Shown: positions 25,873 through 27,989 of the stretch, in pieces | How positions within the stretch are numbered: the first letter of the stretch is position 1 | Layout of the letters: every line of letters begins with the position of its first letter | Origin: Escherichia phage PECP20 | Reading direction: 5' to 3' (one strand) | Sequence record: OQ873415.1 | DNA: 64,000 nucleotides | Translations under genes and position numbers: made by a program | The notes under the pieces: generated by a model | Told to the model about the DNA's origin: nothing | The model's database searches: none | The model's input: the letters and a program-made list of their open reading frames with translations, nothing else

Positions 25873-26499
25873 TTACTTACGAGTTTTTGCATACTGAGCA
25901 GCGTCAGCAGCCAAACGACCTGCTTGTCGAAGTTTTTCTTTAATCTCATCATGAAGTGGTTGAGTATACTTCAAACCTTCGATAGTCAAATAAAGACGAT
26001 AAAGGTCTGGGGTATCAAGGTTGTTGATATGTTGGCCATTACGAAGACTATTGAATTCACGAACGAGTGAAGATGTATCAGATTCAATATCACGAACAAG
26101 CGAAGATAGTTGTTTATATTTTTTTTCCAGGCTAGAAGTATCAAACTTAAGAGCAGGAGCTTTAGGAGTTGCTTTTACTTCCGGCTTAGGCTCAGGTTTT
26201 GCTACTGCTTTAGGGGTCGCAGGTTTAGGAGTGGTAGGAGCAGGTTTTACTTTAGGCGAACCAGATTTAGCAGAAACACCACCACTAACAATATCTTTGA
26301 ATGCTTTAGAAGCTCTGTAATATTCTTTTTGGCTGGAAGTGTCGATACCGTACATGGCTTGAACGTTTTTGAAAAACTCTGTACTAGTTTTTGTACCAGA
26401 AATAGCATCGTAAGCAGCTTGCCATTTCTCTTTTGTCATACGTACACCGGCTTCGGTGATTACTTCCGTTTCGGCTAAAAATTCATTAAAAGTATACAT
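25873..26499 (-). CDS. internal-protein-like capsid-targeted protein, 208 aa, with Pro/Lys/Ala-rich linker
   Basis: N-terminal MYTFNEFLAETE resembles the T4 capsid targeting leader; central KPAPTTPKPATPKAVAKPEPKPEVKATPKAP low-complexity tract. Confidence 0.6.
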   Translation of the reverse strand: MYTFNEFLAETEVITEAGVRMTKEKWQAAYDAISGTKTSTEFFKNVQAMYGIDTSSQKEYYRASKAFKDIVSGGVSAKSGSPKVKPAPTTPKPATPKAVAKPEPKPEVKATPKAPALKFDTSSLEKKYKQLSSLVRDIESDTSSLVREFNSLRNGQHINNLDTPDLYRLYLTIEGLKYTQPLHDEIKEKLRQAGRLAADAAQYAKTRK

Positions 26500-26542
26500 T
26501 GATGGTCCTTAGAAAGTAGGTTTATTGTTTACTATATTTATA

Positions 26543-26575
26543 CAAAAAAGCCCCAACCTTTCGGAAGGGGCTATA
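26543..26575 (-). terminator. rho-independent terminator downstream of the tRNA-like RNA
   Basis: Minus strand AGCCCC-UUCCGAAAGGUU-GGGGCU then UUUUUU; same stem as the 11012-11043 terminator. Confidence 0.55.
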
Positions 26576-26611
26576 TACCTTGTCGGGGTTTCCACCTACT
26601 AGGTAAGTGTT

Positions 26612-26772
26612 TGTACGAAACGCCGGGATTCGAACCCGGTTATTAAGCAGTTGACGCTACTCAATATTTTTAAAAGGCCATATCTCTACCATATCCGAAC
26701 GTCCCGTCAAAAACGCTACTCGGCTTACGGCAAAGATATTTCCTCGAATCGATAATTCTGTGCGCCGTTTCT
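26612..26772 (-). ncRNA. tRNA-like stable RNA, about 158 nt, with canonical T-arm and acceptor-like stem
   Basis: Minus-strand T-arm CCGGG-TTCGAAT-CCCGG (plus coords 26623-26639); 3' CGTTTCG can pair with GAAACG near 26766-26772; no standard anticodon or D arm found by eye; terminator hairpin follows. Confidence 0.35.
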
Positions 26773-26874
26773 GCTGTGATGTAAGGGGATATTAACGAAT
26801 CATAAAGATTTATTAAGACCAGTCCCTACTCAGGGAACATCAGTCCGACGACTTGCCGGTAGCGACCCGGCTTC

Positions 26875-27219
26875 TTATTTTGGCATATCATCAATTTGCT
26901 CTCGACGCCGACGCCATAGATTAATCGCTTCATAGGCACATTCTGCGTTTGGTATATGACGGCAATAATATAATGATTCGCGTTTCTGGAACCGATGTTG
27001 TAATGGAATTTCGTTTAAAAGGTCTTTACGGTCAAAGTATTCAAAACTAGTTAACCCAGAACGGTTTTTAAGAAACTTCCAATGTCCGAATTCATTTTGA
27101 ACATAGATGTAATCGGCATGCTGATACAGCGAATTAATCAATCGATGAGAAATAACTGTATCATATTCGTTAAAATAAAACGTTAAATCATGAACTACCA
27201 GATAAATATTGCCTTTCAT
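26875..27219 (-). CDS. hypothetical protein, about 114 aa, between tRNA genes
   Basis: Track ORF trimmed to ATG (MKGNIYLVVHDL...) because the longer ORF would overlap tRNA-Arg; GAGG RBS. Confidence 0.5.
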   Translation of the reverse strand: MKGNIYLVVHDLTFYFNEYDTVISHRLINSLYQHADYIYVQNEFGHWKFLKNRSGLTSFEYFDRKDLLNEIPLQHRFQKRESLYYCRHIPNAECAYEAINLWRRRREQIDDMPK

Positions 27220-27237
27220 ATTTTCCTCACTTAAAGT

Positions 27238-27314
27238 TGGTCGAGACAGAAGGATTCTAACCTTCAACCTACGGATTAGAAGTCCGTTGCTCCATACAAT
27301 TGAGCTATGCCTCG
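27238..27314 (-). tRNA. tRNA-Arg (anticodon UCU)
   Basis: Hand-folded cloverleaf: acceptor CGAGGCA/TGTCTCG, D-stem GCTC/GAGC, anticodon stem ACGGA/TCCGT with loop CTTCTAA, T-arm GAAGG-TTAGAAT-CCTTC, encoded CCA. Confidence 0.75.
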
Positions 27315-27320
27315 AATATA

Positions 27321-27394
27321 TGGCCCAGACCAGATTCGAACTGGTAACCTTTCCCTTATGAGGGGACTGCTGCTAACCATTGAGCTACAGGGCC
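27321..27394 (-). tRNA. tRNA with CAU anticodon (Ile or Met type)
   Basis: Hand-folded: acceptor GGCCCTG/CTGGGCC (one mismatch), anticodon loop CTCATAA, T-arm ACCAG-TTCGAAT-CTGGT, CCA encoded; D-arm irregular. Confidence 0.55.
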
Positions 27395-27454
27395 TAAATA
27401 ACTTTCTATTATGAAAGGCACTTTAGAGCACCTTTGGTAATAGAGAGTATGAAT

Positions 27455-27482
27455 TAATAATAACACATAATTCTTAAAGCAA
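27455..27482 (-). promoter_or_regulatory. possible MotA-dependent middle promoter upstream of the tRNA cluster
   Basis: Minus strand TTTGCTTTA (MotA-box-like) then 12 nt then TATTAT. Confidence 0.4.
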
Positions 27483-27989
27483 ATCAATCATTTTAACGGT
27501 TGGCAAAACGATTTCTTCTTCAATATAAGCAAATTCGACACGTTCAACTACACGCAAGAAATCGTAATCATAGTATTCAGAAGCATAGCCAAGAATATCA
27601 ATAAGTCCTTGAGATATCTCATCGCCTTTCACAAAGAACAGGTCGAATACGCGGGCTTCGTCTTCTTCAGATTTATCACCAAGGTCTACTTCGATGCCAA
27701 AGACCTTTTTAATAAATTCCGGTTGGAGTTGGTCTGAGAACAGTCCTTCAACCAGATATTCGTAGATAATAAGCGAGCAACGACCGAATGGTGTATTACC
27801 GCAATAACGTTCGGCTTTGGTGCTAGAATGACGGCTCTTAAATTTCTTCAAGAGATATTTAAACTGTTGGAGCTCATGCTCTTCCACTTCAAACAATGTT
27901 TTGGTTTTATAGTTGTCACCATCACTTTCATAGGTAGTGACATCAATTACGTAGCCCTTAGGAATTGTACTGCCTAATCGAATATTCAT
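27474..27989 (-). CDS. hypothetical protein, 171 aa
   Basis: ORF track. Confidence 0.6.
   Translation of the reverse strand: MNIRLGSTIPKGYVIDVTTYESDGDNYKTKTLFEVEEHELQQFKYLLKKFKSRHSSTKAERYCGNTPFGRCSLIIYEYLVEGLFSDQLQPEFIKKVFGIEVDLGDKSEEDEARVFDLFFVKGDEISQGLIDILGYASEYYDYDFLRVVERVEFAYIEEEIVLPTVKMIDLL

Follow-up and report, generated by a model that had tools for sequence, protein, structure and literature searches.

Orthologs of the T4 RNAs rnaD and rnaC at the distal end of a Mosigvirus tRNA operon

Between a short open reading frame and a transcription terminator, next to the tRNA genes of a T-even phage, lies a non-coding stretch of ~340 nt in which no credible ORF is found, and the question is what this stretch encodes. 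It was singled out within a window of 64,000 nucleotides (the whole stretch of DNA that was analysed) by a sequence-only reading, which saw in it a T arm lacking a normal D or anticodon arm and offered two readings: that it is a tRNA-like RNA, stable and akin to T4 rnaC and rnaD, or that it is a degenerate tRNA. The best explanation for the whole, and one that we hold with high confidence, is that the distal end of the tRNA operon encodes orthologs of rnaD and rnaC, which would be processed in a tRNA-like manner.

Layout of the locus and identity of the non-coding segment

The source phage belongs to the genus Mosigvirus, whose members are RB69-like T-even phages, and is ~98% identical to those already sequenced; the 951-nt locus shows 94-98% identity to many Mosigvirus (RB69-like) phages. 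All features of the locus lie on the minus strand, lower coordinates being downstream, in the order tRNA(CAU), tRNA-Arg(UCU), a 114-residue ORF, rnaD, rnaC and terminator. This order agrees with that in T4, RB5, ATK47 and RB69, apart from the ORF insertion, which is absent in T4. Exactly two tRNAs are found in the 64-kb window by both ARAGORN and the Rfam tRNA model RF00005, and they are the same two that had been folded by hand from the sequence: tRNA-Arg(UCU) at 27238-27314 (67.6 bits with the Rfam model) and the CAU-anticodon tRNA at 27321-27394 (57 bits), an ortholog of T4 tRNA-Ile with 72 of 74 nucleotides identical. The remark that the tRNA set is reduced was correct, yet such a set is ordinary, as RB69 likewise has two tRNAs, both in its own record and in Table 1 of PMC1524935. 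Since CAU tRNAs in T4-like phages are taken to be tRNA-Ile with a lysidine modification (PMC1524935), the name "tRNA-Met" is a mere anticodon label; judged by its sequence, the CAU tRNA of the window is presumably lysidine-modified and reads AUA, and is not a tRNA-Met.

The 114-residue ORF (26875-27218) is a homolog of RB69ORF150c that is annotated in both RB69 and ATK47, and it matches phrog_3355, a family of unknown function, with E = 2.6e-50. A Pfam search with this ORF gave no match, and Pfam and PHROGs searches with the neighbouring ORFs yielded unknown function only. Some 62 nt 5' of the first tRNA, a pattern scan identified a MotA-box (T4 middle-type) promoter-like site, TGCTTTA-N12-TATTAT (27457-27481), a pattern that occurs 8 times in the window, where 1.9 matches would be expected; from its sequence this site is probably the start of the transcription unit. 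In T4 a middle promoter lies just 5' of the tRNA cluster, and transcription of the cluster terminates past the species I gene (PMC2330249). At the other end of the locus, a predicted 3' trailer hairpin and intrinsic terminator occupy 26543-26613. The terminator that had been read 3' of the T-arm segment is indeed present, as a minus-strand hairpin and U-run at 26572-26543 (stem 26572-26549, U-run 26548-26543), and the record of phage G53 annotates a terminator at the same place.

Between the ORF and this terminator, the whole 341-nt stretch folds far better than its shuffles (z = -6.0). The 346-nt non-coding stretch used as a query has matches in 806 phage records, T4 among them at ~88%. In the T4 record AF158101 the homologous DNA, directly 3' of tRNA-Arg, is annotated as rnaD ("small, stable RNA; species 2 RNA") and rnaC ("species 1 RNA"). 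The RB5 record annotates both rnaC and rnaD, and that of Mosigvirus ATK47 annotates rnaC, at the homologous place; RB69 has the identical gene order, and its record leaves the rnaD/rnaC gap blank. The alignment with the two T4 RNAs runs from end to end. The rnaC ortholog, a 139-nt tRNA-like RNA at 26614-26752, is identical to T4 rnaC (species 1 RNA) at 136 of 139 positions without gaps, and the rnaD ortholog (T4 species 2 RNA), ~120 nt at 26759-26878, is ~84% identical to T4 rnaD (T4 nt 1-118 against window 26878-26760), the two being separated by a spacer of 6 nt. A covariance model built from 25 rnaC homologs scores 159.5 bits at 26614-26752, its sole match in the window. By sequence, 26614-26878 is this phage's rnaD plus rnaC, both already known RNA genes, and the first of the two original proposals, a stable RNA of the T4 rnaC/rnaD type, is borne out by the alignment, by the operon position and by the RB5 and ATK47 annotation.

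No curated Rfam family reaches its gathering score over rnaC or rnaD, the two tRNAs being the only features to reach threshold in the window, and in a permissive Rfam search of 26400-27500 the matches falling on rnaC and the trailer (NsiR1, isrK and tRNA-Sec, spanning 26542-26707) were all at chance level. No tmRNA was reported by ARAGORN and no Rfam tmRNA family matched. The check that had been suggested for a standard tRNA at the segment, by ARAGORN and the Rfam covariance model, found none: RF00005 is silent on 26614-26752 even at E<=10, as is ARAGORN, in agreement with the absence of a normal D or anticodon arm. As the T-loop motif by itself is no rarer than chance (12 matches against 8.5 expected), the case for rnaC rests on homology and covariation and not on the motif.

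In many records the homologous stretch carries "hypothetical protein" CDSs, as in G53, Clarke_MM3, Ursula, NM4.3, RB51 and VR7, which would make it a region encoding small proteins. We regard this reading as hardly credible. The longest ORFs in this part of the window have 21-37 residues, all with TTG or GTG starts and scattered on both strands, and none of the small ORFs over rnaC and rnaD is conserved in the alignment. The variation is instead of the compensatory base-pair kind, which protein selection would not produce, and both rnaC and rnaD have been detected as RNAs in T4 infection, with RNAC validated by Northern blot (PMC9697503).

Fold and loop complementarity of rnaC

The fold of rnaC was derived from 25 distinct copies with RNAalifold and pair counts, and later from 35 distinct copies from at least seven phage genera (Tequatrovirus, Mosigvirus, Kanagawavirus, Moonvirus, Karamvirus, Gelderlandvirus and Marfavirus, together with unclassified phages), which were gathered by BLAST, by pattern scans of viral and metagenome contigs and with the covariance model made here. 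Over the 25 copies RNAalifold gives a four-way junction as the consensus fold, in which 25 of 41 pairs are compensatory. In pair counts on the same copies 98% of cells are paired and 26 of the 41 pairs are changed on both sides, compared with 12.1 +/- 2.0 in column shuffles, none of 500 of which reaches 26, and with at most 7 in slid controls in which the partners were moved by 1-3 columns. Support persists in the 35 copies, with 26-27 both-sided pairs and 97.5-98% of cells paired over both sets, the 35-copy alignment being fitted to the model and so leaning towards nested helices. The rnaC sequence of the window fits the family consensus fold, and its fold has z = -4.7.

The ends of the RNA form a 7-bp acceptor stem, 26745-26751 (nt 2-8) with 26622-26616 (nt 131-137), which has an invariant tandem U.U in its middle. 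At the pair of nt 4 with nt 135, 17 sequences have A-U and 18 have G-C, and the remaining four Watson-Crick pairs are invariant. This covariation backs the pairing of 26751-26745 with 26622-26616, and the RNA has a length of 139 nt (26752-26614). The acceptor pairing drawn in the sequence-only reading, with partners about 158 nt apart, has to be replaced by it; that pairing (AAACG at ~26770 with CGTTT) would recruit the 3' end of the adjoining rnaD.

In the place of the D arm there is a long arm of ~70 nt (nt 9-78, 26675-26744) with the apical loop UUUGACGG. Four of its five helices show compensatory changes in nearly every pair, and the basal 3-bp junction stem is invariant. A conserved A-rich linker of ~8 nt leads from the long arm to a 10-bp hairpin (nt 87-112, 26641-26666), which stands in the place of the anticodon arm and has a 6-nt loop, 5'-CGUCAA-3' (26656-26651). 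Nine of the ten pairs in this hairpin are changed on both sides, and the 7-nt loop of an anticodon arm is absent. After a single spacer nucleotide comes the T arm (nt 114-130, 26623-26639), with a 5-bp stem and the loop UUCGAAU; it has the perfect form CCGGG-TTCGAAT-CCCGG that had first drawn attention, and its middle pair is G-C or U-A across sequences. The T arm is followed by the 3' strand of the acceptor, 26622-26616, and then by U and A. The encoded 3' end is U-ACA rather than CCA, so that full tRNA-like 3' maturation of rnaC is not assured; Marfavirus copies encode U-CCA.

The second of the original proposals, a degenerate (or otherwise unusual) tRNA at the T arm, would amount to a class-II-like tRNA of 94 nt lying nested within the 3' two-thirds of rnaC (~26707-26615), and we consider it highly improbable. 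Homologous stretches are annotated as a 94-nt tRNA-Lys in phage 55 and as a 95-nt tRNA-Met in PG7, and an alternative 7-bp acceptor, ACGGGAC/GUUUCGU, can be drawn; ARAGORN and RF00005, however, call no tRNA there. A weak Rfam tRNA-Sec match covers 26615-26707, but its 15.2 bits lie far under the gathering score of 47. The helices specific to the nested fold have 0, 1 and 0 pairs changed on both sides, and a pair of its acceptor is broken in 10 of 25 sequences; the 3' column of that pair shows perfect covariation with nt 4 of rnaC. The nested cloverleaf was rejected for want of covariation of its own and because its acceptor column covaries with nt 4 of the full-length RNA. In the sequence, GUUC-GGAUAUGGUA-GAGA can be read as resembling a relic D arm, and descent of rnaC from a tRNA is therefore possible; this element is missing in Gelderlandvirus, Marfavirus and Kosakonia-type copies, and no parent tRNA is identifiable. 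Compared with 54 phage tRNAs, the acceptor and T-arm halves of rnaC show generic T-arm similarity only.

The full-length fold leaves two loops, on the long arm and on the 10-bp hairpin, that are complementary to each other. The apical-loop hexamer 5'-UUGACG-3' (nt 43-48, 26705-26710) is matched by its proposed partner CGUCAA (nt 97-102, 26656-26651) in 35 of 35 copies, all 210 cells being paired. The nucleotides left unpaired in rnaC offer no other Watson-Crick run of 4 or more, and the chance of a full 6-bp match between loops of this size is ~7e-4. Both loops are invariant in every lineage except Marfavirus, even where the underlying stems have been rewritten. In the Klebsiella Marfavirus clade they read UUGGCG and CGCCAA, a compensatory change from A-U to G-C. 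On the basis of this one evolutionary event together with the invariance, we somewhat favour a kissing interaction between the two replacement loops. We found no such contact described in the literature searched, a body of work to which the original 1970s papers do not belong, and the kissing contact itself appears to be undescribed.

The geometry of a kissing contact demands that the long arm fold back on itself. Alternatively, each loop may be conserved for binding something else, or the two may pair between molecules.

rnaD and the distribution of the two RNAs

For rnaD the fold was obtained from 18 distinct copies, with RNAalifold and pair counts. The RNA has a 5' hairpin at 26871-26855, of 5 bp with the 7-nt loop GUCGCUA and a closing pair that 10 sequences form as A-U and 7 as G-C. 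The long, irregular helix that comes next, closed by GUCGUCG/CGGCG-CA, has its apical part replaced in some lineages, and the encoded 3' end is ...GCGCACA. Of all cells in the 18-copy set 96% are paired, and changes on both sides occur in 7 pairs, against at most 3 in slid controls. rnaD is a rod-like hairpin with a small 5' hairpin ahead of it. Two GC-rich hairpins had been noted in this part of the segment. One, GCCGG...CCGGC (26855-26871), is real and conserved and is the 5' hairpin of rnaD; the other, GTCCC...GGGAC, is not conserved, as it needs a window-specific G at 26826, which in the consensus fold turns an A-U pair into G.U.

rnaD starts at the stop codon of the 114-residue ORF, whereas in T4 it starts 1 nt past a tRNA. 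Because an ORF and not a tRNA precedes rnaD here, its 5' end cannot arise as it does in T4, and, as part of an mRNA, rnaD might stay the 3' UTR of the upstream ORF. This is also the point at which a rival reading has to be weighed, namely that in this phage rnaD is no separate stable RNA and is instead a structured 3' UTR of the ORF mRNA, or processing debris kept by descent, with only rnaC being released. Its start at the ORF stop codon would suit such a reading, as would the differences in upstream context among phages and the distribution of rnaD, which is restricted to Tequatrovirus, Mosigvirus, Dhakavirus and relatives and has its middle part wholly replaced in some lineages. Against this, those genera share near-invariant 5' and 3' blocks, and compensatory changes have preserved the fold. 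rnaD is also kept where rnaC has been lost, in JS98-type phages, which argues for a function of its own, and a convergent adaptive rnaD SNP is reported from an evolution experiment with a T4-like phage on E. coli ECOR34, in which every line acquired it (PMC12685909). We therefore judge the 3' UTR or debris reading to be distinctly unlikely.

rnaC is the more widely spread of the two RNAs. BLAST from divergent copies reached phages of Klebsiella, Edwardsiella, Citrobacter, Kosakonia and Proteus, and found no rnaC outside T4-like phages of enterobacteria. Pattern scans, two of viral contigs and one of metagenome contigs, gave a few close rnaC variants and otherwise chance matches only, and a blastn search of 5,426 complete E. 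coli genomes with rnaC gave no match. In Moon, PG7, Melville, KaAlpha and Ursula rnaC is embedded in a tRNA array, with a few nucleotides between it and the tRNAs on its flanks, and in Kosakonia 305 and NM4.3 no tRNA is annotated within 300 bp on either side. JS98/VR20-type phages have kept rnaD and the trailer and have lost rnaC; rnaC and rnaD can therefore exist independently.

A pairing between the rnaD loop and rnaC, CGCUAC/GUAGCG, was considered and dropped, as it is not conserved where testable and the two RNAs occur independently.

It is quite unlikely, in our judgement, that rnaC and rnaD act in cis alone, as elements of processing or stability (entry sites for RNase P or RNase E, and a 3' cap) that aid maturation of the upstream tRNAs, with no role in trans. 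For this reading, the two are always found within or at the end of tRNA arrays, adjoining tRNAs or the terminator, and in the T4 literature they figure as products of the tRNA precursor alongside the tRNAs (PMC2330249). The invariant loops and U.U tandem, and covariation that spans the 139 nt in seven genera or more, nevertheless far exceed the constraint on a spacer or entry site, the Kosakonia 305 and NM4.3 copies have no tRNA annotated within 300 bp, and the T4 RNAs accumulate as stable species (PMC9697503).

Proposed processing, possible role and comparison with known systems

We infer co-transcription, processing and stability of the two RNAs from T4 and from their structure. Transcription would start 5' of the CAU tRNA, probably at the MotA-type middle promoter (27481-27457), and the transcript would cross tRNA-Ile(CAU), tRNA-Arg(UCU), the 114-residue ORF, rnaD and rnaC before ending at 26572-26543. 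Within it, rnaC carries a tRNA minihelix in which an acceptor of 7 bp stacks on the 5-bp T arm and its canonical T loop. The acceptor/T-arm minihelix is the element recognised by RNase P and by the tRNA 3'-end enzymes (PMC11143913). For this reason, and by analogy, rnaC is most likely excised from the precursor by tRNA-processing enzymes and stabilised like the neighbouring tRNAs. In T4, rnaC is a stable RNA of ~140 nt cut from the tRNA precursor (PMC2330249; PMC9697503).

What rnaC might do after release is a matter for more cautious suggestions. It cannot decode, because an anticodon is absent, and kissing of the two replacement loops would lock it into a compact shape. The role that we would put first, though it is rather doubtful, is that of a tRNA mimic: without decoding, rnaC would bind, and thereby titrate or recruit, a protein recognising the acceptor/T-arm structure. 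The more specific suggestion, that T-even-type phages of enterobacteria keep a kissing-locked mimic for binding a host tRNA-recognising factor (which could be a defence nuclease that targets tRNAs, or an enzyme that processes or modifies them), we consider unlikely. Were it true, the role would be host-specific and invisible on laboratory strains. T4 mutants deleted for the tRNA region can grow on laboratory hosts, so that any role of rnaC or rnaD must be conditional. The convergent rnaD SNP is a hint, and the only phenotype-linked one, of a host-linked role.

The function of rnaC and rnaD is stated to be unknown in a 2010 review (PMC3014915) and again in 2022 (PMC9697503) and 2025 (PMC12685909), some 50 years after the two RNAs were sequenced. 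The value of the present analysis as a discovery is small, the two RNAs being long known. The genes were reportedly described for T4 in the 1970s. For annotation there is some value, as the RB69 record leaves a 430-bp gap blank and other records place false tRNAs or small "hypothetical proteins" there. The comparative fold also offers targets for mutation, namely the A-rich linker, the acceptor stem together with the invariant U.U tandem, and the pair of complementary loops, invariant but for one compensatory change.

The tRNA-like domain of tmRNA, the bacterial Y-RNA-like YrlA and phage RNAs processed by RNase P, such as the C4 precursor of P1 and P7, each carry an acceptor/T-arm-like module that lets tRNA enzymes process or bind a non-decoding RNA. 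The likeness of rnaC to these RNAs is one of principle, with no sequence relationship. rnaC differs from tmRNA in having no tag reading frame. The only YrlA match, at 14.5 bits, is at chance level and falls on the true tRNAs and not on rnaC; the termini of YrlA form the Ro-binding stem, whereas those of rnaC form the acceptor stem. References on C4 and tmRNA are given in PMC11143913.

With a canonical tRNA (RF00005) rnaC shares the 7-bp acceptor on a 5-bp T stem, the loop UUCGAAU, an unpaired discriminator-like U and the setting in a tRNA array. It differs in having neither a D arm nor an anticodon arm of 5 bp with a 7-nt loop, in its length of 139 nt, in the tandem U.U of the acceptor stem and in being found neither by ARAGORN nor by RF00005, whose gathering score is 29 bits.

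The rnaD of this phage resembles T4 rnaD (AF158101 71053-71171; species 2 RNA) in its ~84% identity over ~120 nt, with a near-identical 5' hairpin and closing helix, and in lying directly 5' of rnaC with the 6-nt spacer. It differs in that the 114-residue ORF precedes it, as also in RB69 and ATK47, where T4 has tRNA-Arg, an insertion that bears on RNA processing and not on homology. The 3' end is ...GCGCACA here and ...GCGCACC(A) in T4, and the apical part has diverged. Relative to T4 rnaC (AF158101 70908-71046; species 1 or band 1 RNA), the rnaC described here has three substitutions and is followed by a 3' trailer 9 nt shorter. It is like T4 rnaC in its length of 139 nt, in 136 of 139 bases and in predicted fold, and it holds the same position, as the last gene of the tRNA operon ahead of the terminator.

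Complementary loops and acceptor stem of rnaC

Within rnaC, the tRNA-like ortholog of T4 species 1 RNA, two loops carry the hexamers UUGACG and CGUCAA (window 26705-26710 and 26651-26656, minus strand), which are fully complementary and both invariant. The loops of the Klebsiella Marfavirus rnaC read UUGGCG and CGCCAA, a compensatory change. These observations suggest that the two loops form a kissing-loop contact, of which no description was found in the literature searched. rnaC also contains two copies of a 9-nt direct repeat, GAGUAGCGU (nt 32-40 and 91-99; window 26713-26721 and 26654-26662, minus strand), and each leads into one of the complementary loops. The repeat is restricted to the T4-, Mosigvirus- and Kanagawavirus-type copies of rnaC, and may be due to chance (probability about 0.04) or be the trace of an internal duplication.

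The acceptor stem is interrupted midway by a tandem U.U mismatch (window 26747-26748 with 26619-26620, minus strand) that is invariant in 35 of 35 distinct copies, and the adjoining pair covaries. From this pattern the mismatch looks like a recognition feature and not decay. The Marfavirus rnaC ends in ...CGUUCCG-U-CCA, with the CCA encoded in the genome (homologous loci L040, 1330-1345 in its own coordinates, L041, L048 and L057); T4-type copies, that of the window among them, have U-ACA at the equivalent site.

Annotation of the two RNAs and loss of rnaC

In public records, rnaC and rnaD (the ortholog of T4 species 2 RNA) are mis-annotated or missed, as at the homologous loci L001 (1614-1707), L008 (1551-1645), L002 (1671-1799), L041 (1107-1353) and L063 (706-1134). 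At the position of rnaC the phage 55 record has a 94-nt tRNA-Lys and that of PG7 a 95-nt tRNA-Met; small hypothetical-protein CDSs are annotated over these RNAs in G53, Clarke_MM3, Ursula and NM4.3, and RB69's own record has no annotation for them. Curated Rfam families matched neither RNA.

Dhakavirus-type phages (JS98, L010 1503-1700; also L043, L044 and L045) retain rnaD, the trailer and the terminator and have lost rnaC, so that rnaD leads directly into the trailer; an rnaC covariance model found no match at these four loci. On the plus strand, the rnaD 5' hairpin (window 26855-26871) together with the TTCTTATTTT that comes after it scores as an intrinsic terminator, and this site could stop antisense transcription into the tRNA operon.

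Neighbouring tRNAs, promoter-like site and inserted ORF

The CAU-anticodon tRNA (window 27321-27394, minus strand) is identical to T4 tRNA-Ile at 72 of 74 positions. Despite the tRNA-Met label that its anticodon attracts, it is most likely a lysidine-modified AUA reader, and the phage thus keeps decoders for AGA and AUA, both rare codons in E. coli. About 62 nt upstream of this first tRNA, and overlapping the upstream ORF's stop codon, lies a site resembling a MotA-box middle promoter (TGCTTTA-N12-TATTAT; window 27457-27481, minus strand); across the window this pattern has 8 matches, where 1.9 would be expected.

A 114-aa ORF of unknown function (window 26875-27218, minus strand; RB69ORF150c homolog, phrog_3355) has its stop codon adjoining the conserved start of rnaD. 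Whereas only 1 nt separates tRNA-Arg from rnaD in T4, in the window phage this ORF is inserted between them.
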